64,000 nt of DNA, from NCBI GenBank assembly GCA_963814495.1, contig CAWFDJ010000016.1, positions 28,106 through 92,105 of the forward strand. Direction: 5' to 3'. Below, one piece after another: positions 24,174-52,538 of this stretch; the stretch's first letter is position 1, and each line of letters starts with the position of its first letter. Source of the stretch: an uncultured bacterium (GTDB taxonomy: Bacteria > Actinomycetota > Geothermincolia > Geothermincolales > Geothermincolaceae). The position numbers and the translations under genes were made by a program. The notes beneath the pieces are model-generated. The model searched no databases, was not told the origin of the DNA, and worked only from the letters and a program-made list of their open reading frames with translations.

Positions 24174-24249
24174 CTTGCTGTTCCGTTACTATCGTGGCAA
24201 CCGGCGCTTAGTTTAGCATAGAATAGGGACACAGGGAAAGGAACGCCGC

Positions 24250-25841
24250 ATGCTCATAGCCATGGTCCACGGTTACTTTCTGCACGGCACGGGGAGCAAC
24301 CTCTACGTGCAGAACCTCTGCCGGGAGTTCTGCCGCCTGGGCCACGAGGTCCACCTCTTCTGCCAGGAGAGCGCGCCCGGCGATTTCGACTTCGTGGCGC
24401 GCGCCTACGAGTTCCCCGCGGACAACCTCGAGCCCTCAAAGGTCCTCGACCGGGAGACGCCCTACGCGGGCAAGTGCGTGGCCTTCCGCCCCGACCTGGG
24501 CGGGCTGCTGCCCGTGTACGTCTACGACGATTACGAGGGATACACGGTGAAGGAGTATCCCGACCTCACCCGGGACGAGCTGGAGGGTTACCTGGAGCGC
24601 AACCGCCTGGCGCTGACCCACGTCTTTCAAGGGCGCCGGCCCGCCCTGGTGCTCTCGCAGCACACCATCATGCAGCCGGTGTACGCGGCGCGCGCCCTGC
24701 GCGGGGCGGGGACGGGCGGGACGCGCCACTTCATGACCGTGCACGGCAGCTGCCTCAACTTCTCGGTGCGGCGCTCAGAGACGCTCCAGGAGTACGCGCG
24801 CGAGGCGGTGGGGGCGGTGGACCGCGTCATCTGCGTGAGCGAGGCGGGGCGCCGGGAGTTCGTCGAGTTCTTCTCCGCTGTTGAGGGCGTCGAGACGCGG
24901 TCGCGGGTCATCCCGGTGGGGGTGGACATGGAGAAGTTCGTCCCCCTGGAGATGCGGGAGGAGAAGCAAGCGCGCATCGACAGGCTGCTGGAGGGCCTGG
25001 AGTCCGCGGGCGCGGGCGGGGCGGGAGCGGCACGCGGGAGATGGAGGTGGACCCGGGGGCGGCCGAGGAGCTCTCCGCGGTGGACTGGGCGCGCGACCCC
25101 ATCGTCGTCTACAACGGCAAGTTCCTGTGGACCAAGGGGGTGCAGGTGCTCCTGGCGGCGGCCCCCCTGATACTGGGGCGCCACCCCCGCGCCCGCTTCG
25201 TCCTGGTGGGCTTCGGCTCCCAGCGCCACTGGCTGGAGGAGATCGTCCACGCCCTGGACTCGGGCGACCTGGACCGCCTCCGCCTGCTGCTGCTGCGCCC
25301 CTGGGAGCTCTACCCCGAGATAGACCCCGACGCCTCCCGGTATCTCGAGGGGCTGGTGGAGGCGCTGGAGGACGAGACCTTCCGCGAGGATTATCTCAAG
25401 GCCGCGTCCGGGCGCCTGTGCGAGCGGGTCATCTTCACCGGCTACCTCTCCCACGACCTCCTGAAGGACCTGCTGCCCTGCGCCGAGGTGGTCACGGCCC
25501 CCTCGGTCTTCCCCGAGGCCTTCGGCCTGGTGGCGGTGGAGGCGCTGGCCTGCGGGGTCATCCCCCTGCTGGCCAACCACTCCGGCTTCTCCCAGGTCAT
25601 CCGGGACGTGGTGGACGAGTTCGCCGGCACCTTCGACGAGGTGAGGTTCAAGCCCCTCTTCCTCGACGAGGACCTGGCCCTCAACCTGGCCAACAACATC
25701 AACACCTTCCTGGAATATTACGGAGAGATGTACGCGCAGGAGCGCCGCTCCATCCGCCGGCGCGCCCGGGCCCTGGCCGAGACCAAGTACGCCTGGCCCT
25801 CCATCGCCGCCGCCTACCTGGAGCTGGCCGGCAGGAGGTGA
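24250..25841 (+). CDS. GT4-family glycosyltransferase (frameshift near 25040)
   Basis: N-terminal GT-B half (24250..~25040) and C-terminal half ..FGLVAVEALACGVIPLLANHSGF.. (EX7E-like) in ORF 25041..25841. Confidence 0.7.
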
Positions 25842-25956
25842 CGGCGGGGCCTTATGCCCGCCCTTTACCCCTTCATGCCTGGTTAACTTGGCGCCGGGCC
25901 ATCTGCTATGCTGGATGGGGAAGAGAGGCTTTTTCTTTTAAAGGAGTGGTGGAGAT

Positions 25957-27765
25957 GAAGGCCTTGCGCGTGTCGATCATCGTGACCCTGGCCCTGGCGA
26001 CGCTGGCGTTCTTCCCGGTTGCCGCGCAGGCCGCGGTGCCCGACAAGCCCACGGCCGTCTCGCCCAACTGGGGGGCCCTGGACGTGCCGGTCAACCCCGC
26101 CCTGTCAGGCTCCGCTTACTCCGGCACCGGGACCCACACTGAGACGCAGTGGCAGGTGGACGACTGCTACGAGTTTACTTCCCCCGACTGGTACCGCACC
26201 TCCTCAGGCCGAGGTCCAGACGGTGGTCAACGCGGCCAACGGCACCTTCGCCGACTCCCTGGCCGGCAGGACCAGCCTGGACGAGAACGAGCAATACTAC
26301 TGGAGGTTCCGCTACTCCAACGACAGCGGACAGCTGGAGCGAATGGTCCGACTACCGCTTCTTCATCACCACCACCACCACCTGGTACCTGGCGGAGGGG
26401 AGCACCGCCGGGGGCATGGAGACCTGGGTGCTGGTGCAGAACCCGGGCGACACCGACGCGGTGGTGGACATCGACTTCCAGACCGGCGAGGGGCCGGTGG
26501 CGGGGCCGCAGGGCGACGTCATCCCCCCCAACAGCCGCCGCTCCTACTCCGTGGGCTCCTACGTGACCACCTACGACGTCTCGACCAAGGTGACCGCCAC
26601 CTCCGGCACGGTCATCTGCGAGCGCGCCATGTACGGGCCGGGGCGGGCCTGGGGCCACGACTCCATCGGGGTCACCACCCCCCGCATCAACTGGTACCTG
26701 GCGGAGGGGGCCACGGCGGGCGGCATGGAGACCTGGGTGCTGGTGCAGAACCCCAACGCCTCGGCGGTGACCGTGGACCTCACCCTGCAGACGGAGGCCG
26801 GCGCCCTGTCGCCGCCGGCGCTGCAGGACGTGGACATCCCCGCCGCCAGCCGCCGCTCCTTCAACCTCGGCCTGTACGTGGAGACCTATAACGTCTCCAC
26901 CAAGGTCGCCTCCAGCGGCGCTGTCATCTGCGAGCGCGCCATGTACGGCAACGGGCGCGCCTGGGGGCACGACTCCATCGGCGCCCCTTCCTATACCTTC
27001 ATGTGGCTGTTCGCGGAGGGGTGCACCGGCGCGGGCTTCGAGACCTGGGTGCTGGTGCAGAACCCCATGAGCTACCAGCAGGAAGTGGCCCTGTTCTTCT
27101 CCGACGAGGTCGGCCCCATCGCCGTCTACCCCCGGTTCAACGTCCCGGCCAACTCGCCGGATGTCGGTGAACGTCGGGGACTACGTGCAGTCCTACAACG
27201 TGGCCGTCACCGCGGTCACCTGGAACGAGGCCGGCGGCACAATCGACACCGGCGGCAAGATCATCTGCGAGCGGGCCATGTACGACAGCGGCCGCACCTG
27301 GGGGACCGACTCCATCGGCATTCCGGGCATTGCGGCGCCGTTCTGGGCCCTGCCCGAGGGGAGCACCGCCGGGGGCATGGAGACCTGGGTGCTGGTGCTC
27401 AACCCCAGCTCGTCCGAGGCCGCTACCGTCAGCCTGGTGTTCATGACCGACGCCGGCATCGTCATCCCGCCGGAGCTGCAGGGCGTGGCCCTGCCGGCCT
27501 TCTCGCGCCGCTCCTTCAACGTCGGCGACTACGTGCAGACCTTCGACGTCTCCACCCTGGTGGACGCGGCCGACCCGGTGGTGTGCGAGCGCGCCATGTA
27601 CGGCCCCGGCCGGGCCTGGGCCCACGACTCCATCGGCTACATCCTGGGCTGGGGGGGTATCTCGTCCGCGTCGCGGGCTACTCCGCGGCCGGCCTGGGCG
27701 GCGAAGGCGCCACGCAGGTCGACCCGGCCGCCTGGCTCGACGGCTTCCGCGCCGCCGCCCGCTAA
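25957..27765 (+). CDS. Secreted protein with 4 tandem ~105-aa repeats of an unrecognised domain (repeat protein 1; several frameshifts)
   Basis: Signal peptide MKALRVSIIVTLALATLAFFPVAAQA; repeats begin at ~26383, 26689, 27003, 27339 with W[YF]LAEG.T.GG.ETWVLVQNP ... VICERAMYG ... W.HDSIG; ends at TAA 27763..27765 abutting a palindrome. Confidence 0.65.
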
Positions 27766-27937: not shown

Positions 27938-29793
27938 ATGCACAAGTCCGCTGGCCCGTTCGTACGTTTTCTCGTCCCGATAACCGTCATCTTGATGGCC
28001 CTGTCGTGCCTGGCGCTGACGCGGGCGTCTCCATCGCCGCGCCCGCCGCCCCGACATTGATCTCGCCCGAGACGACTCGGTCGACCGTACCCGTCAATCC
28101 CGCCCTGCAGGCATCCGCCTATTCCGGCTACCCGGCTCACCAGGCCACCCAGTGGCAGATCGACGACATGCAGCGATTTCTCCACGCCGGAGTGGACCCG
28201 CGTCTTCCTCCGGCCGGAGACGCAGGTCCAGGTCAACGCGGCCAACGGGACCTTCGCCAACGAATGCGCCGGCAGGTCCAGCCTCGAGACGAACATGAGC
28301 TACTTCGGTGGAGGGTGCGCTACCAGGACACCAACAGCGACATGGAGCCCCTGGAGCGCTACCGGCTTCTTCGTCACCGCCACCGACACCTGGTACCTGG
28401 CGGAGGGATGCACCGCCGGCGGTTTCGAGACCTGGGTGCTGGTGCAGAACCCGGCGGATGAACGATGCCAGTCGTCAACATCCAGTTCCAGACGGACACC
28501 GGGACCGGTCTCGCCCCCCGCGCTGCAGAACCTGACCATCCCGGCCTAACAGCCGCCGCTCCTTCAACGTGGGAGTCTACGTGACCACTTACAACGTTTC
28601 CACCAAGGTCACCGCCACCCAGGGGACCATCGCCTGCGAGCGCGCCATGTACGGCCACGGGCGGGCCTGGGGGCACGACTCCATCGGGGTCACCGCCCCC
28701 TCGAGCACCTGGTACCTGGCGGAGGGGTGCACCGCCGGCGGCATGGAGACCTGGGTGCTGGTACAGAACCCCAACGCCACCGCGGTCACCGTGGACCTGT
28801 CCTTCATGACCTCCACGGGCTCCGGTCCCCGGTCCTCAGGATTACACGGTACCCGGCATATTCCCGGACGTCCTTCAACGCTCGGGGACTATGTCAGCGA
28901 CTACAACGTCTCTACTCAGGTCATTTCCTCCGGAGGAGACGTCATCTGCGAGCGGGCCATGTACGGCAACGGGCGGGCCTGGGGCGCACGACTCCATCGG
29001 CGTCACCCAGGCCGGCCTGCGGGTGGGTCTTCGCGGAAGGGTGCACCGCGGGCGGCATGGAGACCTGGATACTGGTGCAGAACACCCAGTTGAAGACGCC
29101 AGGACGTAAGGGCTTACGTGATGGACGATCCAGGACGGTGCTGGGGTACATCCCGATGACCGTCGGCGCCCGGCTCGCGTTCCTCGCTCAACGTCGGCGA
29201 CTACGTGCGAGTCGTACAGCGTCTCCTTCATCGTCGTCACCGTGGACGCTGCCGGGGAATACGACGATACCGGCGAGATCGTCTGCGAGCGGGCCATGTA
29301 CGGCAACACGCGCGAGTGGGGACACGACTCCATCGGCGCCGCCTTCCCCTGCCCGGTCTGGACCCTTCCCGAGGGCTGCACCGCGGGCGGCTTCGAGACC
29401 TGGGTGCTGGTGCCTGAATCCCATAGACGAAGCCCAGTACGTGGACGTGTCCTTCATGACCGACGAGCGGGCAGGTCGAGCCGCCGGACTGCAGGACATG
29501 TACCATGGAAGCCTTCTCGCGCAAGTCCATCAACGTGGGGGCTTACGTCAACACTTACGACGTCTCCACCGTCGTCGTAGGCGGACGACTCGTCGTCTGC
29601 GAGCGGTCCATGTACGGCTACGGCCACGCCTGGGCGCACAACTCCATCGGTTACCCCATGGGATTACGGGGACCCGCTGTCGATGACGTCGGTGTCCGCG
29701 TCTTCCGGCTCAGCCGGTTATCTCCGCGGCGAACTGCGACGGCTACTGGACGGGGTCCCGCGCCTCTACCCGCGCTGAACCTCACGCCGACTA
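27938..29793 (+). CDS. Repeat protein 2, tandem paralog of 25957..27765; reading frame broken at least 8 times (pseudogene or repeat-induced assembly errors)
   Basis: RBS GAGGAGG + ATG 27938, signal peptide MHKSAGPFVRFLVPITVILMALSCLAL; N-terminal ..VPVNPALQASAYSG..TQWQIDD.. matches protein 1; four WYLAEGCTAGG[FM]ETWVLVQNP repeats at ~28389, 28709, 29024, 29357. Confidence 0.45.
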
Positions 29794-36612: not shown

Positions 36613-37652
36613 ATGAGCGCGGAAGTAAGGCTGACGCAGTGGTCCAGCAAGGCGGGCTGAGCTGCCAAGCTGGGTCCGGAGGACCTCAAGGACATCCTTA
36701 AATCGCTGCCTCCCGAGCGGCGCGAGGAGTTGCTGGTGGGGCTGGAGACGCCCGACGACGCGGCCGTCTTCCGCCTGCAGCGACGAGCTGGCCCTGGTGC
36801 AGACGGTGGACTTCTTCACCCCCATCGTGGACGACCCCTACCTCTTCGGGCAGATAGCCGCGGCCAACGCCCTCTCGGACATCTTCGCCATGGGGGGAAA
36901 GCCCCTGACCGCCATGAACATCCTCTGCCACCCCTGCAAGCTGGGGAGCGAGGTGGCGGTGGAGATCCTGCGGGGCGGCGCGGACAAGGTCCGGGAGGCG
37001 GGCGCGGTGATCGTGGGCGGCCACACCGTGGACGACGAGGAGCCCAAGTACGGGCTGGCGGTCACCGGGGTGGTACACCCCGGGCGCATCCTCACCGCCG
37101 CGGGGGCTCAGCCGGGCGACCTGCTGGTGCTCACCAAGCCCATCGGCACCGGCATCCTGGCCACCGCGCTCAAGGGGGACTTCCTCGAGGCGGAGGGGAT
37201 GGCGGAGGCCGTGGAGGGCATGCGCGCGCTCAACGCCGCGGCTTCCGGAGGTGGCGCTGGAGGCGGGCGCCCGCGCCTGCACCGACGTGACCGGCTTCGG
37301 CCTGTTGGGGCACCTGCTCGACATGCTGGCGGGCGGCGGGGTGAGCTGCGTCCTCGAAGGCGGGGACGTGCCCCTTTACCCCCGGGTGATGGAGATGGCG
37401 GAGATGGGGATGGTCCCGGCCGGCGCCTACAACAACCGCGCCTTCTACGGGGACAGGGTCTCGGCGGACGGCCTGGACGAGCTGGTCCTGGCGGTGCTGT
37501 GCGACCCCCAGACCTCCGGCGGCCTGCTGCTGGCCGTGCCGCCGGAGCGGGTGGAGGAGGCCCTGGCCGGCCTGGAGGAACGCAATCCCGGCGGTGGGCG
37601 GGTCATCGGGCGCTTCACCGAACCCGGCCCCATCCCCTTGACGATAGAGTGA
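36613..37652 (+). CDS. selD: Selenophosphate synthetase SelD, selenoprotein form (in-frame TGA at 36658..36660; frameshift near 36781)
   Basis: [25 protein letters not shown].. aligns with the SelD active-site GxGC/U..K region; downstream ..[25 protein letters not shown].. AIR-synthase-like fold. Confidence 0.85.
36674..36686 (+). promoter_or_regulatory. Candidate SECIS hairpin GGUCC-GGA-GGACC, 13 nt 3' of the selD UGA
   Basis: Perfect 5-bp stem read from sequence at the canonical bacterial SECIS distance. Confidence 0.35.
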
Positions 37653-37775
37653 CGGTGCCAGGCACCATCACTTTTTCGTCACTTTTTCCGTCACTCTCTG
37701 CCGCGGCTCATGGTCAGGCCATTTTCAATGGGATTATGCTAAAATTTATATACTTTCATTTTTGAGGAGGAGCGC

Positions 37776-38359
37776 ATGGATAGACGGCAATACGGTGGAC
37801 GCGCGGGGGCTGGCCTGTCCCCAGCCGGTGGTCATGACCAAGCAGGCCCTGCGGGAGGCCGCCGGTCCCCTTACGGTGCTGGTGGACAACCCCACGGCCC
37901 GGGACAACGTCACCCGCTTCGCCCGCTCGCAGGGGTGCGAGGTGGAGGCGCGGGAGGAGGACTTCGGCTTCAGCCTGGAGGTCACCCCGGGGCGCCGGGG
38001 AGGCCGCGGCGACCGGGGAGAGCGGCGCGCATCTCTTCGTCCTCTCCTCGGACTTCATGGGCAAGGTCGACAACGACCTGGGGCACCTGCTCGTCAAGGC
38101 CTTCCTCAACACCCTGGCGGACCGGGACGACCTCCCCTCCCACCTCGTCCTCTTCAACAGCGGGGTGGTCCTGGCCTGCGGGGAAGCGGAGACGGTGGCC
38201 CCGCTCAAGCGGCTGGAGGGCCGGGGCGTGTCCATCCTGGCCTGCGGCACCTGCCTGGACTTCTTCGGTCTCAAGGAGGAACTGCGGGCGGGCATGGTCA
38301 GCAACATGTACGAGATAGTGGACGCGCTGGCGGGAGCCGGCAAGTGCATAACGATTTAA
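37776..38359 (+). CDS. yedF: YedF-type selenium metabolism protein (TusA-like + DsrE/DsrF-like); probable 1-nt insertion after the ATG
   Basis: ..[24 protein letters not shown].. (TusA CPxP motif) and ..[34 protein letters not shown].. (DsrE-like); RBS GAGGAGG + ATG 37776. Confidence 0.6.
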
Positions 38360-38365
38360 TACGAT

Positions 38366-38428
38366 GTCATTGCGAGCAAGCGAAGAACGATCCATGAGAT
38401 TGCTTCGTCGCAAGCTCCTCGCAATGAC
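38366..38428. repeat. 63-nt imperfect palindromic intergenic element, copy 2
   Basis: GTCATTGCGAGCAAGCGAAG...CTTCGTCGCAAGCTCCTCGCAATGAC; shares an identical 27-mer with the element at 4276..4331. Confidence 0.5.
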
Positions 38429-38446
38429 ATGGAAGGTAGGAGGCGG

Positions 38447-39868
<1,422 letters not shown>

Positions 39869-39872
39869 ACAG

Positions 39873-41803
39873 TTGCAGGGCCTGATCATCGGCACCGCCG
39901 GCCATATCGACCACGGCAAGACCCAGCTGATCAAGGCCCTCACCGGCACCGACACCGACCGCCTCAAGGAGGAGAAGGAGCGGGGCATCTCCATCGAGCT
40001 GGGCTTCGCCGAGTTCCCCCTGCCCGACGGCACGCCGGCCGGGGTGGTGGACGTCCCCGGGCACGAGCACTTCGTCAAGAACATGCTGGCCGGGGCCACC
40101 GGTTTCGACCTGGTGCTGCTGGTGGTGGCGGCGGACGACGGGGTGATGCCCCAGACCCGCGAGCACCTGGCCATCATCGACCTGCTGCAGGTGCGCGAGG
40201 GGCTGGTGGTCGTCACCAAGGCCGACCTGGCGGACTGAGGAGATGGTCGAGCTGGTGCGGGAAGAGGTGGGCGAGCTGCTGGCCGGCACCACCCTGGAGG
40301 AGGCGGAGGTCATCACCACCTCCACCGTCACCGGGCAGGGCCTGGACGAGCTCAAGGCAGGCGCTGATGCGCGCGGCCGGGCGGGTGCGGGCGCGCCGGG
40401 GCGACGGGCCCTTCCGCCTGCCGGTGGACCGGGTCTTCACCCTGAAGGGCATCGGCACGGTGGTCACCGGGACGCTGTGGGAGGGTTCCGTCTCCGACGG
40501 GGACGAGGCCGTCCTCGAGCCGCAGGGCCGGGCGGTGCGCGTGCGCAACGTGCAGGTGCACGGGAAGGAAGTGGAGGCGGCGCTGGCCGGACAGCGCGTA
40601 GCGCTCAACCTGCCGGGCATCGCCGTCGAGGAGATCGACCGCGGCGACGTGGTGGTGAGCGCGGGGTACCTCTCCCCCACCTTCATGGTCGACGCCCGCC
40701 TGCACCTGCTGGAGAGCGCCCCGCGCCCCCTGAAGAACCGCTCCCGCATCCGCTTCCACCACGCCACCCGCGAAGTGCTCGGACGGGTGGTCCTGCTGCG
40801 GGAGGCGCGGGAAGGACAGGAGGTACAGGAACTGGCCCCGGGGGCCAGCGCTTACGTCCAGTTCCGCCTGGAGGCCCCGGTGGTGGTCAAGTACGGGGAC
40901 CGTTTCATCCTGCGCAGCTACTCCCCCGTCACCACCATCGGCGGCGGGCAGGTGCTCGACTCCCATCCCCCGAAGCACCGCCGGGTCGACCAGGGCCTGC
41001 TCGAGGCGCTGGCCGTGCGGGAGCGGGGGGAGGTCTCGGGGGTGCTCCAGTCCGTCTTCGACGGGCGGGGGGTGCCGCTCGACCTGGAGAGCCTGGAGCG
41101 CCTGAGCGAGATGGACCCGCAAGCTGTCCGCGCCACGGCGGAGGAGATGCTGCGGGAGGGGACCTGGCGCGGCATACCTTCCGAGCGCAAGGCCAAGCTG
41201 ATGCCCGTCAAAGATGTACGACGCTTACGCGGAGAAGATCACGGGGCTGCTGAAGTCCTTTCACCAGGCCAATCCCAGGGAAGCAGGCATGGAGAAGGAG
41301 ACCCTGCGCACCCGTCTCTCGCGCACCCTGCCCGCGGGTGATTTCGACGCCATGCTCAAGCTGCTGGCAGGAGGGGGGCGCCGTGACCGTCAAGGAGGGC
41401 AGGGTGTCCATCCGGGGCGAGGGCCGGGCGCTCACTTCCGACGAGGAGCCGGGAGAAGCAGGCCGTTCTTGCCGATATCGAGGCGGGCGGCTTCGCGCCC
41501 CCCTTCCTCAAGGAGTTGGCCGAGGCGCACCGCCTGGACGCCCGCAAGGCGCGGGACTTCATCGGCATGCTGATGGAGGAAGGGGCCATCGAGCAGGTGA
41601 CGCAGGATTACTACCTGGCCCGCGGCAGGCTGGCCGAAGCGGAGGAGGGCATCCGCGCCTTCCTGGCCGCACACGGCCGCCTGGAGGTCAAGGACCTCAA
41701 GGAGATGTACGGCCTGACGCGCAAGTACTCCATCCCCCTGCTCGAGCACTTCGACAGGTCCCGGGTGACGCGGCGCGACGGCGATTACCGCGTGTTATGG
41801 TGA
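39873..41803 (+). CDS. selB: Selenocysteine-specific elongation factor SelB (about 5 frameshifts; TTG start)
   Basis: [25 protein letters not shown] (G1), DVPGHE (G3), ..VVTKADL (G4), beta-barrel domains, C-terminal winged-helix domains ending ..[10 protein letters not shown]. Confidence 0.8.
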
Positions 41804-42040: not shown

Positions 42041-44595
42041 CTACCGCGGGTAGCCGATGGAGTCGGTGGCCCAGGTGCGGCCGTTCCCGTACATCGAGCG
42101 CTCGCAGATGACCCCGCCGCCCGAGGATACGACCTCCGTCGAGACGTTGTAGTCGGTCACGTAGTCGTTGACCTTGAAGGTGACCCGGGAAAAGCCGGGG
42201 ATGTTCACGTCCTGCGGTCCGGCTACGTACCCCGAACCTGTCATGAAACCGAGGTCCACGGTCACGGCTCCGCTGTTGGGGTTCTGCACCAGCACGAAGG
42301 TCTCCATGCCCCCGTCGGTGGAACCCTCCGCCAGGAACCAGACGTCGGAGGCGGCAGCGGTGGTCCCGATGGAGTCGTGGGCCCAGGCGCGGCCGTTGCC
42401 GTAGACCGAGCGTTCGGCGATGACCGGGATGCTGCCGGAGACCGCCGGTGGACACGTTGAAGTCGGTGACGTAGTCGTTGACCTTGAAGGTGACCCGGGA
42501 ATAGGCGGGTATGGTCACGTCCTGCGGGCCGGGCACCACCCCGGCGCCGGTCATGAAGTCCAGGTCGACCAGGGCAGCGGACGAGTAAGGGTTCTGCACC
42601 AGCACGAAGGTCTCCATGCCGCCGTCGGTGGAGCCCTCCGCCAGGAACCAGAGGTCGGAGGGGACGGTGACCCCGATGGAGTCGTGGGCCCAGGTGCGCC
42701 CGTTGCCGTAGACGGAGCGCTCGCAGATGACGTCATCCGTGGCTTCCACTACGGTGGAGACGTTGTAGTCGGTGACGTAGTCGTTGACCTTGAAGGACGC
42801 GCGGGATTGGGCCGGGAGGGTGTAGACCGGCGGCCCGGGCTCCGCGCCCGCGCTGGTCATGAAGTCCATGTACACGTCCACCGGGTAGGCGTTGGGGTTC
42901 TGCACCAGCACGAAGGTCTCCATGCCGCCGTCGGTGGAGCCCTCCGCCAGGAACCAGAGGTCGCTCGGGTCGGTGACCCCGATGGAGTCGTGGGCCCAGG
43001 CGCGCTCGTTCCCGTAGACCGAACGCTCGCAGATGACGTTGCCCCCGGCCGGGGTGACCTTGGTGGACACGTCGAAGTCGGTGACGTAGTCGTTGGCCTT
43101 GATGGTGACGCGGGAGTTCGCCGGGACGAGGACGTCGTTCAGGGCTCCGGGAGCCACGACCCCGCTTCCGGTCATGAAGGTGACGTCAACCGTGACGTCG
43201 TCGGCGTTGGGGTTCTGCACCAGCACGAAGGTCTCCATGCCGCCGTCGGTGGAGCCCTCCGCCAGGTACCAGGGGGCGCCGTTGTAGACCTCCTCTGTGT
43301 AGAGGATGCCGTCGACGAAGCCCGGCCCGCCGCCGATGCCGTCCCAGGCGACGCGGGGGTTGCCCAGCGGGTCCACCGCGATCACCGGGTACGACTCCGA
43401 GCACTCCGAGAGCATCACCGGCGCGGACCAGCCGCCCCCCCGGTTGGCCGAGTACCAGACGTCAAGCCCGCTTGCGCCGTTGCTCCACACCCAGACCACC
43501 TGGGGATAGCCGTCCTCGCCCACGGCTATCTCGGGCATGTGGTTGGTGTCGCTTGAGGGGTCGAGGTTGAGCGGGGTGGTCCAGCCGCTGCCGGGGTCGG
43601 TGGTGTAGAAGGTCCCTTGGTGCGTGCCGTCGAACCCGCTCCAGACGACGTGCGGGTGCCCGGCCGGGTCCACCGCCATCCGCGCGTGATCAAAGTCCGT
43701 TATGCCGGCGGCCACGTTCACGGGGGCGGACCAGCCGGTCCCGGGGTTGGCGACGTAGTGGATCCCCTGGGGGGAGGAGCTCACCTCCCACATCACGTGC
43801 AGGCCGTCCAGGTCGTCGACGACCAGGGTCGGGTAATAGCCGATGACGGTGCCGGAGATGCTCACCGGGGGGGTCCAGAGCCGGAGGGCGCGGCGGTGGA
43901 GTAGAAGACCCGGGGGGACCCGTCGCTGCCGTACCAGACCACGTGGAGGTTCCCCGTCGAGTCCACCCCGATCTTGGGGCGCTGGTTGTCCGTGGTCCCC
44001 GACGACAGGTCCAGCGGCACCGACCAGCCTCCTCCGATGTCCCTGGTGAAGTAGGTCCTGATCACCGCGGAGTAGGTGCCCTTGAAGACGACGTAGGCCC
44101 CGTCCCCGTCCACGGCGATGTCGGGGGCGGCGTTGTCCACGGAGGGGCCGGCCGAGGAGAGGTTGACCGGGGCCGACCATCCCGCCTCACCCAGGGTGGA
44201 GTAGAGGACGTGCACGCTGGAGACGGAGTACTCGCACCAGACCACGTGGGGGCTGCCGTCCGGCCCCAGGACCATCTTGTAGTCGTCGGGGTCCTCGTCG
44301 GTGCCGGTCGAGACGATGGCCGGCTCGGACCAGCCCGAGCCCAGGTTCTCGGAGTAATAGAGGTCCAGACCGTGCCCGCCTGGCCCTTCCAGAGGACGTG
44401 GGTGCCCCCCTGGCCGTCCACGGCGATCTGCGGTGACTGGTTGCTGGTGATGGTGTCGGAGGAGATGTTCACCGGCTCCGACCACCCGGGCGACGCGACC
44501 GCGCTCGAACCGCCCAGCATCATCCCCGCCGACGCCAGCATCATCACCGCTGTCAACAGGGCCAGCCTCGTCTTGATCCTTGTTCTACCTCGCAC
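42041..44595 (-). CDS. Secreted protein: signal peptide + BNR-like (GWSxP) beta-propeller repeats + 5-6 C-terminal copies of the ~105-aa WYLAEG repeat (repeat protein 3; frameshifts)
   Basis: GTG start with RBS AAGGAGGT; MRGRTRIKTRLALLTAVMMLASAGMMLGGSSAVASPG; ~8 units of ..G.GWS.P..LS..(P.IAVD..G..HVVW); then W[YF]LAEGSTDGGMETFVLVQNP..VICERSVYG..WAHDSIG repeats; ends ..DSIGYPR*. Confidence 0.65.
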
Positions 44596-44687: not shown

Positions 44688-45799
44688 TCAAAGGTCTATC
44701 CTGGTGGCGTACAGCTGGAGGTGGGCATCCATGCCCGGGGTGGTGTGGGCGGCGCCCTGCGCGTCGACGATGAGCAGCTCGTACCCGTGCCCCTCCGCCC
44801 ACTCCACCGCCTGGGGATAACCCATGACGAAGAGCGCGGTGGAGAGGATGTCCGTCTCGGCCCCGCCCGTCTCGCTGGAGGAGGGGATGAGCACCGAGTC
44901 GCTGATGGACGCGGGTAGCCGGCCGGCCGGTGGAAGGGTCGAAGATGTGGTGGTAGCGCACTCCCCCGTACTCGAAGTAGCGCTGGTAGTCGCCTGACGA
45001 CGATAGGCAGGTGTCGCCCTCGAGGGTCAGCTGGCCCAGGTACGAGCCCGGGTCGCGCGCGTTGATGACGGCGATGCGCCAGTCCGGCCCGCCGGCCTCG
45101 CGCGGCTTCTCCCCGATGGTCAGGGTGGTGCTGACCATGTCCACGAACCCGCTGGTGATGCCCTCCTGCTTGAGGACCTTGACGGCCGCGTCCGCCGCGT
45201 AGCCCTTGGCGACGCCCCCCAGGTCGATGATCATCCCTTCCCTCGCCAGGTAGACGGTCCTGTCGGCCTCGTTCAGGACCATGTATTCGTCCGCCGCAGC
45301 GCGACAGGGCTTCCTCTATCTCCGCGTCCGAGGGGGGCCCCAGGCCGCGCTCGCGCCTGCCCACCACGTCCCAGAGGTCGATGACCGGCCCCAGGGTGAC
45401 GTCGAAGCTGCCGCCGGTCTCGGCGTGAAAACGCTGGGAGAGGGCCAGCACCGCGAAGAGGTCGTCGGAGACCCTCACCGGGGCGGCGTGGGCGTCGCGG
45501 TTGACCGCGGCCAGCTCGCTGGCGGGGTCGTGGCGGTTGAACACCCCGTCCAGCCGGCGCACCTCCGCGAAGGCGGCGTCCGCGGCGTCCTCCACCACCC
45601 GCGCGTCCCGGCCGTACAGGACCATCTTGATGGAGTCGTCGAGGATGTACTCGGTGCGGCTGTAGGGCTCCTCCAGGTAGCCCGAGCCCTTCCCCAGCCA
45701 GGCGAAGAGCAGGATGACCAGGGGCACCGCCACCAGCAGCCCCACGATGATCAGCAGGGTCTCCCGGCGGTTCTTCCTGACCAGTTCCTTCTTGTCCAT
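44688..45799 (-). CDS. apbE: FAD:protein FMN transferase ApbE (2 frameshifts)
   Basis: N-terminal TM, ..GSFDVTLGPVIDLW.., ..IIDLGGVAKGYAADAAVKVLKQEG.., ..YHHIFDPSTGRPA.. ApbE family blocks. Confidence 0.75.
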
Positions 45800-45893
45800 A
45801 GACGTCAGTATAACACGGGGTCAGCCCCGGATTTCAACGCGGGAGGTAAAGAATCGAGACCCGGCCGAGGGTAAAGGTTTATGGGGGGGCGGG

Positions 45894-45925
45894 AAGGAAA
45901 AGGGGCCGGGAGAACCCGGCCCCTT
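45894..45925 (-). terminator. Rho-independent terminator after rnfD: GGGGCCGGG-UUCU-CCCGGCCCC followed by UUUUCCUUCC on the minus strand
   Basis: Perfect 12-bp stem (AAAGGGGCCGGG/CCCGGCCCCTTT) with 4-nt loop and U-tract, read directly. Confidence 0.55.
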
Positions 45926-45939
45926 TCGATCGATGGAGA

Positions 45940-46896
45940 TTACGACGCGGCTACCGCTCCGAACCTCTCCGGCTTGAACACCTTGTCCAGCAGTGGCACG
46001 AAGGCGTTGCCGATGAGGATGGAGAAGGCCACCGCTCCGGTAGGACCTCCGTAGGTCCGTATGAGCACTATGCAGATGCCGATGAGCAGGCCGAAGACGA
46101 TCTGCCCGTACGCGGTCATGGGGCTGGTCACCCAGTCCGTGGCCATGAAGAAGGCCCCCAGCATCACGCCGCCCGCCAGGATGGCGTAGATGCCGTCCTT
46201 GCCCAGTACGTAGGAGAGCACCAGCACGGTGGCGATGATGGTGGTGGGGATGATCCAGCGGATGGTCCCCTTGTAGAGCAGGTAAGCGCCGCCCAGCAGC
46301 ACCCAGAAGGCCCCCACTTCCACCAGCGCGCCGCCCGAGTCGTTGCCGAACAGCAGGGCCAGGTAGGACGGGTGGGGCATGTCCGCGAAGGTGCCGTGCT
46401 TGAGCAGGGCCAGCGGGGTGCCTCCCGTCGCGCCGTCGAAGTAGCCGGGGATGACCCCCAGGTAGTGGGTCCAGGATGCGATGATGCCCGAGCAGAGCAG
46501 GACGAAGACGAAGCCGAAGAGCGCCGGGTTGAAGATGTTGCGCCCCAGGCCGCCCGTGAGTTCCTTGACGATGACCACGGCGATGAACACCGCGATGACC
46601 AGCGTGAACCACGGGGTGAGGGGAGGCATCACCAGCGCCACCAGTACTCCGGTGAGCAGGGCGCTCAAGTCCATCACCGTCGGTTCCTTCTTCATCAGCT
46701 TACGTATCACCCAGTCGAACGCCACGGCCGCGGTCGCGCAGATGGCCAGGTTGATCAGGGCGTTGACCTTGAAGACCACCAGAGCCGCGATGGCCGCCGG
46801 AATAAGGGCGATGAGCACGTCGCGCATGTTGGTGGAGATGTCCCCCTTGGCCCGCAGATGGGGTGGAGGTGTAACTACCAGGTTATTAGTTGCCAT
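45940..46896 (-). CDS. rnfD: RnfD/NqrB-family membrane subunit with FMN-attachment threonine motif
   Basis: ..PPHLR.., ..GRNIFNPAL.., ..FFMATDWVTSPMT.. (covalent FMN site); 318 aa intact. Confidence 0.8.
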   Translation of the reverse strand: MATNNLVVTPPPHLRAKGDISTNMRDVLIALIPAAIAALVVFKVNALINLAICATAAVAFDWVIRKLMKKEPTVMDLSALLTGVLVALVMPPLTPWFTLVIAVFIAVVIVKELTGGLGRNIFNPALFGFVFVLLCSGIIASWTHYLGVIPGYFDGATGGTPLALLKHGTFADMPHPSYLALLFGNDSGGALVEVGAFWVLLGGAYLLYKGTIRWIIPTTIIATVLVLSYVLGKDGIYAILAGGVMLGAFFMATDWVTSPMTAYGQIVFGLLIGICIVLIRTYGGPTGAVAFSILIGNAFVPLLDKVFKPERFGAVAAS

Positions 46897-48250
46897 ATCC
46901 CTTCACCTCCTCTAACTGTTCTTCTTCTTTAAGGCCGCTATCTCGGCCTTGGCTTTCCGGACATATTGCACGTGCGGGATGTAGGCGGGGCAGGCTGAAG
47001 GAGCAGCAGCCGCACTCGAAGCAGTCCAGCGCGCCCCACATCTCCGCCTTGTCCCACTGTTCCCGCCGGGTGGACTGGGCGATGAAGTTGGGCATGAGGA
47101 ACATGGGGCAGACCTCCACGCACTTGGAGCAGCGCACGCACTCGCGCTCATCGCCCAGGTCCACCAGGTCGCCCGCCAGCACCACCACGCCGGAGGTCCC
47201 CTTGACCACCACGGCGTTCATCTCGGTCTGGGCCCAGCCGGTCATGGGGCCGCCCATGATCAGCTTCTCAGGGCGTGCCCACGAAGCCGCCGGCCGCCTC
47301 GATCAGGGTGGAGATGGGGGTGCCGATCTTCGCCAGGAAGTTGGAGGGGTTCTTGATGCCCGGGCCGGTGATGGTGAGCACCCGCTCGTACAGGGGCTTG
47401 CCGGTCTCGGCCGCTTCCTTCAGGGCGATGGCGGTGCCCACGTTCTGCACCAGGCAGCCCACTTCCGAGGGGAGCTTGCCCGGGGGCACCTTGCGCCCGG
47501 TGAGCGCGAAGATGAGCATCTTCTCGGCTCCCTCGGGGTACTTGACCTCGAGTATCTCCACCGAGAGGCCCGCTTCTCCCTTGACGGCTGCTGAAAGGGC
47601 GTCGGCCGCGTCCATCTTGTTGGCCTCCACCCCGATGATGCCCTTGTCGGCCCCCACCGCTTTGACCAGGAGCTTGAGGCCCGCGACCAGGTCGGCGGCG
47701 CGCTCCAGCATCAGCCGGTGGTCGCAGGTGAGGAAGGGCTCGCACTCGCAGGCGTTGATGATGACCACGTCCACCCGCTTGTCCTTGGGCGGGGCCAGCT
47801 TGACGTGGGTGGGGAAGGCGGCGCCGCCCATGCCCACCAGGCCGGCGTCCTTGGCCACGGTGCCGCAGTTCCTCGGCCGATAGCGCTCCCGCGTCGCGGG
47901 AGGCTCCCCGCGAAGGCGGGCTGGGACGCGTCCGGGGTGATGATCACGCTCTTGACCTTGGCGCCGGTGAAGTTGGCCACGTCCTCGATGGCCTTGACCG
48001 TACCCGCGACCGAGGAGTGTACCGGGGCCGAGACGAAGGCGTCGGTGGACCCGATCAGCTGGCCGACCGCCACCTTGTCGCCCACGTTCACCACCGGTGA
48101 GTTGGGGGCCCCGATGTGCTGCTGCAGGGGGATGACCACCTCGGCCGGCACGGGGGCCTCGACGATGGCCTTGCCCGCCGCCAGTTCCTTGTTGTAGGGG
48201 GGATGGATGCCGCCCCTGAAGGTCTTCAGATTACCGCCGTGTTCAGACAT
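46886..48250 (-). CDS. rnfC: RnfC-like NADH-binding Fe-S subunit (2 frameshifts)
   Basis: ..GGIHPPYNK.., ..GMGGAAFPTHVKL.., ..CVRCSKCVEVCPM.. and ..CFECGCCSFSCP-like.. ferredoxin motifs across 3 ORF pieces. Confidence 0.7.
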
Positions 48251-48251
48251 C

Positions 48252-49181
48252 TCAGCCCTCCTTCCTTTCCATCCGCTCGTTTCGTTTGTTGATCACGTAG
48301 CTGACGCCGGCCGCCGCGACCAGGCCCACCAGGCCGATGCCGCCCCAGGCGGCGCCGGGCTTGACGAGGTACTCGAAGGCGGTGACGCCGGCCGGTACCG
48401 TGGGCTTGGCCGGCAGGCCGTAGCTCTCCGGCTCGTCCTCCAGCACGTAGATGTAATGGAGGCCGGAAAGCTCGTCTACGCCGTAGACCCGGGCGCCGCT
48501 CACGCCGTACTTGGTCTTGAGCTCGTTGACCCTCGCCGCGGCCATCTCCTTCATCGCTTCCAGGTCCCCGAAGTGAAGGGCGCCGGAGGTGCAGGTGGAT
48601 ACGCAGGCCGGCTTGTTGCGCAGCCAGGCCTCGTTGACCAGGCCGCCCTTGTCGTCCTTCTTGTCCAGCAGGGCCTGGAAGTCGGCCAGGGGCTTGCGCA
48701 TGTCCTCACCCTGGAAGGCCTCCGTGGTGTTGGAGATGCGGTCGAAGCAGAGGCGGCAGCGGAAGATGCCCTTCTCCTTCTCCTTGTAGCGGCAGGCGGA
48801 GAAGGGGCAGGTGGCCACGCAGTAGTTGCAGCCGATGCACTTGTCGGTGTCGGTCATGACCACGTAGGCCTCCTCGTCGCCGTCCGAGACCTTGTACTTC
48901 TTGGTGGCCCCTGAGGGGCAGACCTTGACGCAGGTGGCGTCGGTGCAGTGCATGCACTGGTACTTGGTGAAATGCCACCACAGGTCGTCCGCCGACTTGG
49001 CGTCCTCCGGCTCGTTGAAGAGGATGCGCATCCAGCACTCGCTGGTCAGCTCCAGCGGGTTCTCGTAGGTGCCGTTGTTGTAGGTCTCGGTGATCTCATT
49101 CTGGTTCCAGCTCTTGCAGGCGACCTGGCAGGCCCGGCAGCCGGTGCACTTGCTGGCATCGAACATTATCGCCTTAGCCAT
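48252..49181 (-). CDS. Formate dehydrogenase Fe-S subunit (FdnH/FdhB-like, 4 x [4Fe-4S], C-terminal TM anchor)
   Basis: MAKAIMFDASKCTGCRACQVACK.., ..CMHCTDATCVKVCP.., ..CIGCNYCVATCPF..; C-terminal hydrophobic helix. Confidence 0.8.
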   Translation of the reverse strand: MAKAIMFDASKCTGCRACQVACKSWNQNEITETYNNGTYENPLELTSECWMRILFNEPEDAKSADDLWWHFTKYQCMHCTDATCVKVCPSGATKKYKVSDGDEEAYVVMTDTDKCIGCNYCVATCPFSACRYKEKEKGIFRCRLCFDRISNTTEAFQGEDMRKPLADFQALLDKKDDKGGLVNEAWLRNKPACVSTCTSGALHFGDLEAMKEMAAARVNELKTKYGVSGARVYGVDELSGLHYIYVLEDEPESYGLPAKPTVPAGVTAFEYLVKPGAAWGGIGLVGLVAAAGVSYVINKRNERMERKEG

Positions 49182-49182
49182 C

Positions 49183-52100
49183 TCAGCTCACCTTCCTTAC
49201 GTTGACCAGGAACGCTTTGTACTCCGGGATGGTGGTGTTGCCGTCGCCCACGTGCGGGGTGAGCTGGTTGGCCGCGTAGCTGCGCTTGGCCACCTTACCC
49301 TGCTCGCCGCGCTCCCGCCCGCCGGGGAACATCCCGGTGAAGCCGAAGTGCCAGACCATGCCGACCACGTGCACGTCCCTGGTGCCGCCGTTGCCGTCGC
49401 CCACGTTGATGGGCTGCAGGCGGGGGGTGACCACCGCCACGCCCTGCACCTTGCCGCGCAGGCTGCTTACTTCAACGACAGTCGCCCTTGCTGATGCCCA
49501 GCTCGTCCGCCAGGGACTTGGAGAGCTCCACGAACATCTCCGGCATGGCCTCGCCCAGCCAGGAGAGGCTGCGGGTCATCTGGCCCGCCTGCCAGTGCTC
49601 GGTGACGCGGTAGGTGGTGCCGATGTAGGGATAGTCGGTGGAGCCGACCTCCGCGAATCCGTACTTCTCCGGGTCGCCGCCCTTCTCCGGGTCGGTGGAG
49701 GGGTACTTCAGCACCGCGGCCGGGTTGTTCTGCTGCTTGCTGAGCGCGTTGTGCACGGGGCTCTCGGCCGGCTCGTAGTGCTCGGGGAAGGGTCCCTCGT
49801 TGGCCTTGTTGGTGAAGAGCAGGCCGAGCTGGCTCTCCTTCCAGTCCATCATCAGGAAGGGTCCGTTGTTCACGCCGGAAGCAGGTCGCCGGGGGCGTGT
49901 TGGGCGCGTCGGCGGTGCCTGCTACGAAGTCGGGCACGTCGTTGTTGACCCACTTGGCGCCGTCCCAGCTCACCAGGGCCTTGTCCTTGGCCCAGGGCTC
50001 ACCGTTGTAGTCGGCCGAGCAGCGGTTGTAGATGACGCGGCGGTTGACAGGCCAGCACCAGGCCCAGTAGGGATAGAGCTGCAGGCCCGGCTGGTCCGGG
50101 TAGATCTTGTTGGGGTCGGTCTGGTACTGCCACTTGAGCTTGTTGCGGGAGACGGTGCCCTTGTCGACGCCCGCCGCCTTGGCGACGGTCTCGAGCAGGG
50201 CGTCGCCTTCCTTGACGTAGAGGCCGCGAGTAGATCCAGTTGCAGCAGGCGGTGCTCCCGTCGGCCAGCAGGGTGGCGAAGGAGACCAGGGTGCTGGCAC
50301 GCGCCTTGTCCCAGAAGTCCTTGGTGCCCTTGACGTCCTTGGGATAGGTGAACCCGTTCAGCTCCAGGTCGATGTTGTCTACGACGATCTCGCCGTGCTC
50401 GTCCCGCTCGTAGTCCCAGAACATCCCGGTGATGGCCTCGCGCGCCGGAGCGCTCTTGTCGTCCTCGTAGAGGGCCTTCAGGCGGGTGGCGAGCTGGTCG
50501 GCTATCCACAGGTCGCTCTCGGCCTCGCCCGGGGGGCTCACCGCCTTGTAGCGGTACTGGGCCAGGCGGCCGGAGTTGGACACCGAGCCCTCCTTCTCGA
50601 TGGAGGAGGCGGCGGGCAGGGCGTAGACCTTGGTGGGGATGTTCTTGACGTCGGCCCCGGGGCGCCGCCAGAAGTTCATCATCTCGGTGTCCCAGAGGTC
50701 GATGGCCACCAGCCAGTCCAGCTTGTCCAGGGCGGCGCACTCCAGGTTGGCGTTGGGCCCGCCCACCGGCGGGTTCTGCCCCCAGCTGATGCAGCCCTTG
50801 ATGATGCCCTGGTACATGTCCTCGAAGAGGGGGATGTGGGAGTAGTCCTTGGACCCGTCGCGCTTGGGCATGCAGGTCGTAGGCGGCCGCCAGGCCCTTT
50901 TCCGCGACCACGCCGGGCCACCAGCACTTCAGCATGCTGGCCAGGAACTTGGGCCGGTTGACCCAGTAGCCGCCGATCTTCTCCGGGCGAGGAGGCGGCG
51001 TTGTAGGTGTCCAGGTCCTTCTCCTTGGAGGTGGGGCAGGGCATGTAGCCGGGGATGATGTGGTAGAGCAGGGCGGCGTCGGTGGAACCCTGCACGTTGG
51101 ACTCGCCGCGCAGCGCGTTGATGCCGCCGCCCGGCAGGCCGGTGTTGCCCAGCAGCAGCTGGAGCACGGCGAAGGTGCGGATCTTCTCCACCCCGACGGT
51201 GGACTGGGTGAGGCCCATGGCGTACATGAGGTTGCCCGACTTGCCCGGCATGTAGGTCTGCTTGACGTAGGCCTCGGCCAGTTCCTTGAACTTGGCCTGG
51301 GGGATGCCGCAGACCTTCTCCACCATGGCCGGGGTGTAGCGGGAGTAGTGCTCCTCCAGCTTGGCGAAGGCGCTCTGGGAATAGAGCGGGTGCTCCCGGT
51401 TGACCTTGCAGGTGCTGGGATCCCCGTTCTCCATGCCGGTGGGCTTGCCCCGGAAGTTGGTCATGTCATCGACGTCGATGAGGGGCATGCGCAGGGCGCC
51501 CGTCTTGGCGGCCTGGTCCTTGTACTGGACCATCCAGGTGCTCTTGTCGTAGGCGGCGCCCATGGTCTTGCCGTCCTGGCGGCCGCTGAACAGCCCGGTG
51601 GCGGAGTCGAAGCTGAAGCCGTCCACCACCAGCAGGGGCCCGTTGGTGTAGTTCTGCACGTACTCCCATTGTATGTAGTTGTTCTGGATGGCGTAATTGA
51701 TGAGGCCGCCGAAGAAGGCGATGTCGGTGCCGGGACGGATGAAGGAGAAGGCATCGGCCTTGGCGGCGGAACGGGTGAACCGGGGGTCTACCACCACCAG
51801 CTTGGCTCCCCGTTTGTCGCGGGCGTCCTGGATCCACTTCCAGGAGATGGGATGGTTCTCGGCGCAGTTGCAGCCGCAGACCATGAAGGCGTCGGCGTTA
51901 CGCAGGTCGGACCAGTGGTTGGTCATGGCGCCCCGCCCGTATGTGGCCCCCAGACTGGAGACCGTGGCGGAGTGTCATATTCGGGCCTGGTGTTCGAGGT
52001 AGACGATGCCGAGTGCCCGGGCCAGCTTGGTTTCCAGCGCCAGTTCCTCGTTGTCCAGCGCGGCCCCGCCCAGGTTGGCGATGCCGGTGCACCGGTTGAC

Positions 52101-52538
52101 GGTGACCCCGTCCTTGTCCGTCGTCGTGAAGTTGGCGTCCCGGGTCTCCTTGATGAGTTTGGCGATGTCGTCCAGCGCCTCCTCCCAGGAGATCTCCTTC
52201 CATTCGGTGGCGTTGGGCTCGCGGACGCGGACCTTCTTCAAGCGCCACTCGCTGGTGGACGTCTGGAGGATGGCCTGCCCCTTGGAACAGAGTGAACCCC
52301 GGTTGATCGTGCTGTCGGCGAGGCCCTCCATGGCCACCACCTTGCCGTCCTGGACGCTCACGATGGCTGAGCACCCGACGCCACAGTAAGGGCATACCGT
52401 GGTGGTCTCGGTCGCGCTGCTGATGCGAAGCGTCTCCCCCGCGGCGATAGCCGAGGCCTCAAAGCCCAGGCTGATCAGCGCGACGGAGCCTATCCCCGCA
52501 CCGGAGAGCTTCAGGAAACCTCTTCGCGTAATTTCCAT
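49183..52538 (-). CDS. fdhA: Formate dehydrogenase catalytic subunit, Tat-exported selenoprotein (in-frame TGA at 51975..51977; about 3 further frameshifts)
   Basis: Twin-arginine signal MEITRRGFLKLSGAGIGSVALISLGFEASA; ..VCPYCGVGC..; ..LEHQARI-U-HSATVSSLGATYGRGAMTNHWSDLRNADAFMV.. matches the FdnG/FdhF Sec region (UHGPTV..GRGAMTNHW). Confidence 0.85.

Follow-up and report, generated by a model that had tools for sequence, protein, structure and literature searches.

A gene on the reverse strand of a 64,000-nucleotide (nt) stretch of DNA from an uncultured bacterium of the Geothermincolaceae (Actinomycetota), hereafter the window, encodes a protein in which a signal peptide and an eight-bladed beta-propeller are followed by four tandem copies of one repeat. 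The repeat is not new: it is catalogued as DUF5719, and both its fold and its sequence hallmarks place it in the ASRT/TM1070 'ASRAH' superfamily. We are confident of this architecture and of the homology to ASRT and TM1070. The best explanation of the whole, which we regard as narrowly probable, is that the four repeats (the tetrad) form a glycan-binding cell-surface tail that carries the propeller as its head. An original prediction made from the sequence had given the gene's exact coordinates and the same order of signal peptide, propeller and C-terminal repeats, and did not mention that the reading frame is interrupted. The gene and the parts of its product are located as follows.

42041..44595 (-), whole gene, from GTG at 44595 to the stop codon at 42043-42041; 851 amino acids (aa) after three 1-nt corrections
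44494..44595 (-), predicted Sec signal peptide, 34 aa, MRGRTRIKTRLALLTAVMMLASAGMMLGGSSAVA; cleavage before SP, judged by eye from n-region, h-region and AxA pattern
43278..44493 (-), eight-bladed beta-propeller; blades of ~50 aa, GW[ST]xP ... IAVD ... HVVW
42975..43277 (-), ASRAH/DUF5719 repeat 1 (WYLAEG...); repeat hidden Markov model (HMM) E 1.6e-45; Pfam DUF5719; TM1070 fold
42669..42971 (-), ASRAH/DUF5719 repeat 2 (WFLAEG...); repeat-HMM E 6e-44
42362..42665 (-), ASRAH/DUF5719 repeat 3 (WFLAEG...); two HMM pieces, 42665-42447 and 42442-42362, in different frames (frameshift site 3)
42050..42352 (-), ASRAH/DUF5719 repeat 4 (WFLAEG...); repeat-HMM E 1.8e-46

The tetrad and its propeller head

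The four repeats are 102-105 aa long, abut directly, and share 64-74% pairwise identity, far beyond chance. They fill everything C-terminal to the propeller, and the protein stops 2 residues past repeat 4 (...DSIGYPR*). Five to six copies of a novel repeat had been described; we count four, and the novelty did not survive, as the ASRAH superfamily was defined in 2009 and homologues are already named 'DUF5719 family protein' in public sources. The Pfam profile DUF5719 (PF18986) matches at 81.2 bits (gathering cut-off 26.2; E 9.8e-23) in four stretches, each confined to roughly positions 51-116 of a profile 319 positions long. With 44 aligned sequences as input, AlphaFold modeled the four repeats at a predicted local distance difference test (pLDDT) of 96.3 and a predicted template modeling score (pTM) of 0.93. 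Each domain is modeled as an eight-stranded beta-sandwich with the TM1070 fold, and only TM1070 and ASRT reached a Foldseek probability of 1.00. When a profile of the tetrad was compared with 177,635 PDB sequences, the top matches were ASRT (E 0.003) and TM1070 (E 0.009), the sole other match being a 5'-nucleotidase at E 0.37; a single-repeat profile again placed ASRT (E 0.022) and TM1070 (E 0.094) first, and with neither profile did any other PDB entry score better than E 0.3. Precomputed Pfam annotation also places PF07100 (ASRT) on five homologues (P0021, P0030, P0033, P0036 and P0058).

De Souza, Iyer and Aravind, who defined the ASRAH superfamily in 2009 and predicted that it binds sugars, gave it two hallmarks, a conserved Trp that opens strand 1 and a near-invariant Asn that closes strand 2, and placed the predicted small-molecule or sugar binding in a cleft lined by strand 2 (PMC2739507). 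Both hallmarks are present, with W7 in 90% and N26 in 100% of 165 repeats. In the alignment these residues pair with W7 and N32 of TM1070, the WFFPDG of TM1070 pairing with WYLAEG and its CIMN with LVQN. The polar residues E11, T14, R60, E88, R89 and Y92 are likewise near-invariant throughout the repeats, and the conserved Glu of 'ET' (88%) lies at the position equivalent to the ligand-contacting His25 of TM1070; together, these residues support a putative ligand site.

The repeat occurs in blocks of four. Among the fetched repeat proteins, 186 of 206 hold four copies and nine hold eight, and the homologues returned by the first search carry exactly four in almost all cases. A search of 1.84 billion representative proteins with the single-repeat profile gave 9,168 matches at E <= 1e-3; of the best 150, 136 show four stretches and nine show eight or nine, while the other five differ from both. 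At 79 genome loci, four repeats are found in 91 of 123 repeat-bearing open reading frame (ORF) segments, most of the others being cut off at a contig end or broken up by a frameshift. The window itself holds three tetrads, all of four copies. Copy number seems to be quantized in fours, with intermediates rare, and the mobile unit is a fixed block of four, not the single repeat. A variable-number adhesin stalk was rejected on the same grounds, the copy number being fixed at four or eight. The eight-repeat relatives, with two tetrads in one chain (P0121-P0127, P0156 and P0182; also L027:3075-9263), are proteins of up to ~2,000 aa.

TM1070 and ASRT form tetramers, and in the other ASRAH families the domain comes in dyads or tetrads (PMC2739507). 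Fourfold organization is likewise found here, in the copy number of this protein and of its 186 four-copy relatives and in the pTM of 0.93, a value that implies a fixed mutual arrangement of the domains rather than beads on a string. It is likely, judging from the model, that the tetrad is a single-chain pseudo-tetramer, the counterpart of the stand-alone homotetramers; this is the natural reading because the copy numbers are four and eight, the predicted assembly is rigid and the stand-alone relatives are tetrameric.

Repeats are more alike within a protein than between proteins (mean identity 0.64-0.69 vs 0.55-0.60), and repeats 2-4 of the window protein have an identical 21-aa stretch, WFLAEGSTDGGMETFVLVQNP. 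Both suggest concerted evolution, through gene conversion, inside the tetrad. Repeat i of one protein best matches repeat i of another in 99 of 128 cases; this positional signal is mixed and is not used as proof that the repeats are non-equivalent.

The signal peptide has a basic n-region (MRGRTRIKTR), a hydrophobic core and the cleavage site AVA|SP. No Cys was found in the first 40 residues of the corrected protein, and the lipobox is absent; since the signal peptide has no cysteine, a lipoprotein reading was rejected. The propeller occupies residues ~35-440. Eight W[ST]xP motifs recur with a ~50-aa period, each followed ~28 residues on by [HQRY]V[VLMA][WF], in agreement with the roughly eight GWSxP/HVVW blades originally proposed. 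The expectation that this part would model as a beta-propeller was also borne out, as AlphaFold returned eight blades of 3-4 strands for the N-terminus of the best homologue, P0001 (pLDDT 90.8, pTM 0.87).

The propeller is real, and its relation to BNR_4 is distant. The Pfam BNR_4 (PF15892) match exceeds the gathering threshold (E 6e-10), which upholds the BNR part of the earlier description; the sialidase likeness attached to it is unjustified. A degenerate Asp-box, [ST]x[DN]xGxGW, occurs in four of the eight blades and the canonical BNR motif SxDxGxTW in none. A sialidase or GH33 (BNR_2) assignment, for which we looked for a six-bladed propeller, the (F)RIP motif and canonical SxDxGxTW Asp-boxes, was accordingly rejected. 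Two curated families scored below their NCBIfam cut-offs: the PDIAV motif-containing lipoprotein (NF053835; 67.4 bits vs 90), whose lipobox Cys is absent here, and the PLL/BP39L family lectins (NF052349; 19 vs 400). Propellers of the PDIAV/BP39L type have seven blades, whereas the one in the window has eight and lacks a lipobox. Residues for catalysis or sugar binding could not be mapped on the propeller. The head is probably a ligand-binding or glycan-active surface.

Distribution and proposed role of the tetrad

A scan of one genome per species returned 565 relatives. The best 80 of these all come from metagenome-assembled genomes (MAGs) of Actinomycetota, many of them named Candidatus Geothermincola, Solincola, Geothermincolia or Anoxymicrobiaceae, and one MAG contains at least 16 tetrad loci. 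Tetrad genes are frequently neighbors of one another in these loci, as are the two others of the window at 26-29.7 kb, which make the present gene, as had been predicted, the third of its kind:

gene 25954-27640 (+), smaller tetrad protein; tetrad 26371-27640; frameshifted
gene ~28000-29654 (+), smaller tetrad protein; tetrad 28379-29654; frameshifted

Both smaller proteins consist of a signal peptide, one ~100-aa Ig/FN3-like domain (a sub-threshold match to Pfam Ig_Rha78A_N, E 1e-5 to 2e-4) and four ASRAH/DUF5719 repeats. A glycosyltransferase gene (24232-25838) immediately precedes the pair.

The tetrad lies within 15 aa of the C-terminus in 172 of 195 cases, which leaves no room for an LPXTG signal or a transmembrane anchor, and a hydrophobic segment stands at the N-terminus of 142 of 169 proteins. 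The domains that precede 81 of the tetrads represent 58 Pfam families, among them 5'-nucleotidase/metallophosphatase, C39-like, C70 and S8 peptidases, FG-GAP, TIG, Big_7, InlB-B-like repeats, RCC1, PSII_BNR, virginiamycin-lyase-type propellers, beta-helix and BNR_4. M23 peptidase and Kelch occur as partners too. Since the partners span dozens of families, the tetrad is mobile as a block. The claim that the repeat is a genuine mobile module therefore stands as far as portability goes (at least 58 families), the unit being the block of four and not the single repeat.

We propose that the protein would be exported and would work as two modules, the propeller serving as a protein-specific head and the tetrad as a portable C-terminal tail. 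The four ASRAH domains, packed into one rigid body with equivalent sites, could together provide avidity for a glycopolymer of the cell envelope. By binding this polymer non-covalently and multivalently, the tail may keep the head on the cell's own surface, where the specific activity would come from the head, which varies from protein to protein and is a propeller here. The same tetrad is attached to dozens of unrelated exported proteins in Candidatus Geothermincolia and related Actinomycetota.

The steps of this proposal differ in strength. Glycan binding by the tetrad, which follows the literature prediction for the superfamily, is reasonably probable. That the tetrad anchors proteins to the cell's own wall is a tentative suggestion, drawn from analogy and architecture, and falls just short of probable. 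A non-covalent anchor is suggested because one invariant C-terminal module is common to many unrelated exported proteins of one genome, because neither a sortase signal nor a membrane anchor would fit behind it, and because the superfamily is predicted to bind sugars. In other monoderm bacteria, anchoring to the wall is typical of 5'-nucleotidases, subtilases and adhesin-like repeats. A wider form of the idea, in which the tetrad would be the general non-covalent wall anchor of Candidatus Geothermincolia and related deep-branching Actinomycetota, a single-chain pseudo-tetramer whose four glycan sites recognize a lineage-specific wall polymer and display dozens of enzymes and adhesins, is possible though doubtful.

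Other roles for the tail were weighed against this. A carbohydrate-binding module might direct its cargo to environmental polysaccharides or to host or prey glycans instead of the cell's own wall, a reading we consider unlikely: most cargo is not carbohydrate-active (5'-nucleotidases, S8, C39 and M23 peptidases, FG-GAP, TIG, RCC1), and an identical tail on many unrelated heads of one genome resembles an address tag. The tetrad might alternatively be a protein-protein assembly module, forming an S-layer-like lattice or an oligomerization platform with no glycan ligand. The stand-alone relatives do act through protein-protein contacts (homotetramers; binding of ASRT to a rhodopsin), the model is rigid and compact, and the tail is common to many surface proteins. 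There is, however, no evidence of self-association, and the conserved polar residues (E, R, E-R, Y), together with a cleft position aligned with a ligand contact of TM1070, favor a small-ligand site, so that we give the assembly role only a slim chance. A type IX secretion system (T9SS) or other sorting signal was rejected, 410 aa being far too large. The reading from which the work started, an unknown repeat family joined to a sialidase-type BNR propeller, has a real Pfam BNR_4 match behind it and was made when annotation was lacking; refuted on novelty, it now retains almost no probability.

Several points weigh against a glycan-binding surface tail. Sugar binding by extracellular ASRAH/DUF5719 domains is a contextual prediction of 2009, and ASRT, the sole member studied experimentally, is reported to bind DNA and a rhodopsin (PMC8660804). 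Because this relative is reported to bind DNA, even the sugar prediction is tentative. The link to ASRT and TM1070 in sequence is specific and of borderline significance, the pseudo-tetramer geometry comes from pTM and copy number rather than from superposition on the 1NC7 tetramer, and the propeller was modeled on the sequence of P0001 rather than that of the window. In a minority of proteins (23 of 195) the tetrad is N-terminal or internal, and a role as wall anchor would not by itself account for these architectures. At the loci L030, L037, L054, L056 and L066, 160-2,100 residues follow such a tetrad. The neighboring genes, ApbE, RnfD and SelB, are uninformative on a surface function, and the three frameshifts leave a small chance, taken up below, that the gene is a pseudogene.

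Reading frame and gene neighborhood

The intact protein is obtained solely after correction of three 1-nt indels, near 44364, 43879 and 42446. Three-frame translation of 44720-41990 gives a single long coding region in which the frame switches three times, and phase analysis of GC content at third codon positions (GC3) divides the gene into the same four segments. P0001 aligns collinearly by tblastn in four frame segments (residues 7-77, 63-238, 241-718 and 719-851). The corrected 851-aa product matches P0001 by blastp from 1-851 to 1-851 with 83% identity and two gaps. The start at GTG 44595 is preceded by a Shine-Dalgarno sequence, GAAGGAGG, which was rated strong, and gives an N-terminus equal in length to that of P0001. 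A scan for promoters and terminators around the gene found nothing over shuffled background. The sites, with the expected protein sequence from comparison with P0001, are as follows.

44611-44604 (-), Shine-Dalgarno GAAGGAGG, 8 nt 5' of the GTG at 44595
44362..44366 (-), frameshift site 1; one 'a' missing, 'tgg a(a)c ctc'; expected ...GTVWNLYYSEN...
43877..43881 (-), frameshift site 2; one 't' missing, 'ggc t(t)c tgg'; expected ...PSGFWTPPV...
42444..42447 (-), frameshift site 3; extra 'g' at 42446-42445, 'acc g(g)c ggt c'; expected ...NVSTAVSGS...

Three frame changes within 2.55 kb could mark a decaying pseudogene, with genuine frameshifts and without a functional product in this organism. 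Each of the indels is a single base at a short run of 1-2 identical bases (a, t, g), and the remaining sequence is collinear with an intact orthologue, 83% identical, and has no further lesions. P0001 comes from a Joint Genome Institute (JGI) metagenome contig on which RnfD (318 aa), ApbE (369 aa) and P0001 (851 aa) are all intact, and the gene order in the window matches it: RnfD at 45940-46896, ApbE at 44691-45820, then the propeller-tetrad gene. In the window, ApbE (-) is distributed over three frames, selA and selB are fused into a single artificial 970-aa ORF at 38429-41341 (+), the glycosyltransferase at 24232-25838 (+) lies in two frames, and both other tetrad genes are frameshifted as well. 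There are 87 GC3-phase segments over the 64 kb, and indels occur at a rate of ~1 per kilobase in every gene, a pattern typical of unpolished long-read assembly. Because an intact 851-aa orthologue exists beside the same RnfD-ApbE neighbors and nearby genes are frameshifted too, the three indels are most likely assembly errors, and a pseudogene is quite improbable. The window looks like an unpolished, indel-prone assembly rather than the site of decay of this gene, and ORF-based readings of it therefore need frame correction. Programmed frameshifting was rejected, as the three sites are unrelated and frameshifts are found window-wide.

The JGI contig was the sole syntenic contig found. A tblastx comparison of the ApbE-to-gene region with the 79 genome loci gave matches confined to the tetrad, with no syntenic orthologue in the representative genomes. 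At lower window coordinates lies a selenocysteine machinery cluster at 36695-41800 (+), with selD-like (36695-37649), selA (38420-39868) and selB (39870-41800) genes recognized by eye from their translations. The cluster adjoins the Rnf/ApbE genes (44691-48244), beyond which an apparent formate-dehydrogenase-type molybdopterin enzyme and an iron-sulfur subunit, also judged by eye, are encoded at 48255-52448 (-). The selenocysteine, Rnf/ApbE and formate-dehydrogenase-type genes fit an anaerobic lifestyle.

Comparison with known systems

For a single gene the result is modest: the window protein is a new domain combination in a known, functionally uncharacterized family. No function has been assigned to DUF5719, a large family: the repeat profile matches ~9,200 clusters at 50% identity. 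The present analysis ties it by structure to the ASRT/TM1070 fold, sets the four-domain block as its working unit, and finds the block at the C-terminus of many exported proteins of one uncultured actinobacterial class, which uses it as a shared tail. In the searchable literature we found no paper mentioning DUF5719, no use of the term ASRAH outside the 2009 paper (PMC2739507), nothing on surface proteins in work mentioning Geothermincolia, and no description of the tetrad rule, the pseudo-tetramer model or common tail use in Geothermincolia. The hypothesis of multivalent wall-glycan binding by DUF5719 bears on the surface decoration of uncultured monoderm bacteria and has relevance to the general role of ASRT-type proteins. 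The cell-surface, glycan-binding role first suggested for the repeat agrees with what is predicted for the superfamily (PMC2739507); it was a reasonable guess, and one already anticipated in the literature. Identification of the repeat as a known carbohydrate-binding domain, which had been named as a reason to abandon the idea, came about in part, in that the superfamily was already known and its sugar binding is only predicted (PMC2739507).

The stand-alone relatives TM1070 and ASRT are intracellular, single-domain proteins of ~125 aa with an SHEshChhN ligand signature. The window repeats, in contrast, are predicted to be extracellular and are covalently linked, with a strand 1-2 loop 6 residues shorter and with Glu and Leu in place of the ligand-contacting His and Cys. 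Secreted forms of ASRAH have been described from Chloroflexi, where tetrads are fused to amidases, and from actinomycetes, where a lipoprotein carries a dyad (PMC2739507). The Chloroflexi tetrads (family 2; Roseiflexus, Chloroflexus, Herpetosiphon) resemble the window protein in being secreted and in having exactly four tandem ASRAH domains beside another module, and their authors proposed binding to a cell-wall (peptidoglycan) element and a possible tetramer-like packing (PMC2739507). Family 2 is, however, described as always fused to an N-acetylmuramoyl-L-alanine amidase (PMC2739507), whereas the partner here is a propeller, the phylum is another and the repeats score with DUF5719. No amidase was found among the Pfam matches of the window protein or among the 25 commonest cargo families, and the protein is therefore not a member of family 2. 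The actinomycete lipoprotein (family 3; PMC2739507) has two ASRAH domains, a lipobox Cys, N- and C-terminal extensions and a WhiB/glycosyltransferase/zincin neighborhood. The window protein has four domains, a signal peptide with no Cys, a propeller head and ApbE, RnfD and SelB as neighbors; lacking the dyad, the lipobox and the WhiB neighborhood, it does not belong to family 3 either. By our inference, DUF5719 (PF18986) itself may correspond to the family 3 dyad lipoprotein (PMC2739507). The window protein and DUF5719 are alike in being extracellular and in belonging to Actinomycetota.

An S-layer component had also been envisaged, and a look for sortase, S-layer-homology or secretion motifs in homologues had been suggested. 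In the window protein no sortase or S-layer feature, no SLH or CWB2 Pfam domain and no C-terminal LPXTG sorting signal was found, and the chain leaves little room for them after repeat 4. The SLH and CWB2 triads of Firmicutes are pseudo-symmetric repeat units that bind secondary cell-wall polymer non-covalently. Like the tetrad, they have a fixed small number of repeats and attach one common unit to unrelated exported proteins. The SLH (helical) and CWB2 (Rossmann-like) folds are nonetheless unrelated to the beta-sandwich of the tetrad, and there are three repeats there and four here. The resemblance is thus a functional analogy only, and wall binding by the tetrad remains putative. The wider anchor idea, if true, would make the tetrad a previously unrecognized surface-display system, parallel in function to the SLH and CWB2 triads but using the fold that a cyanobacterial 'rhodopsin transducer' has.

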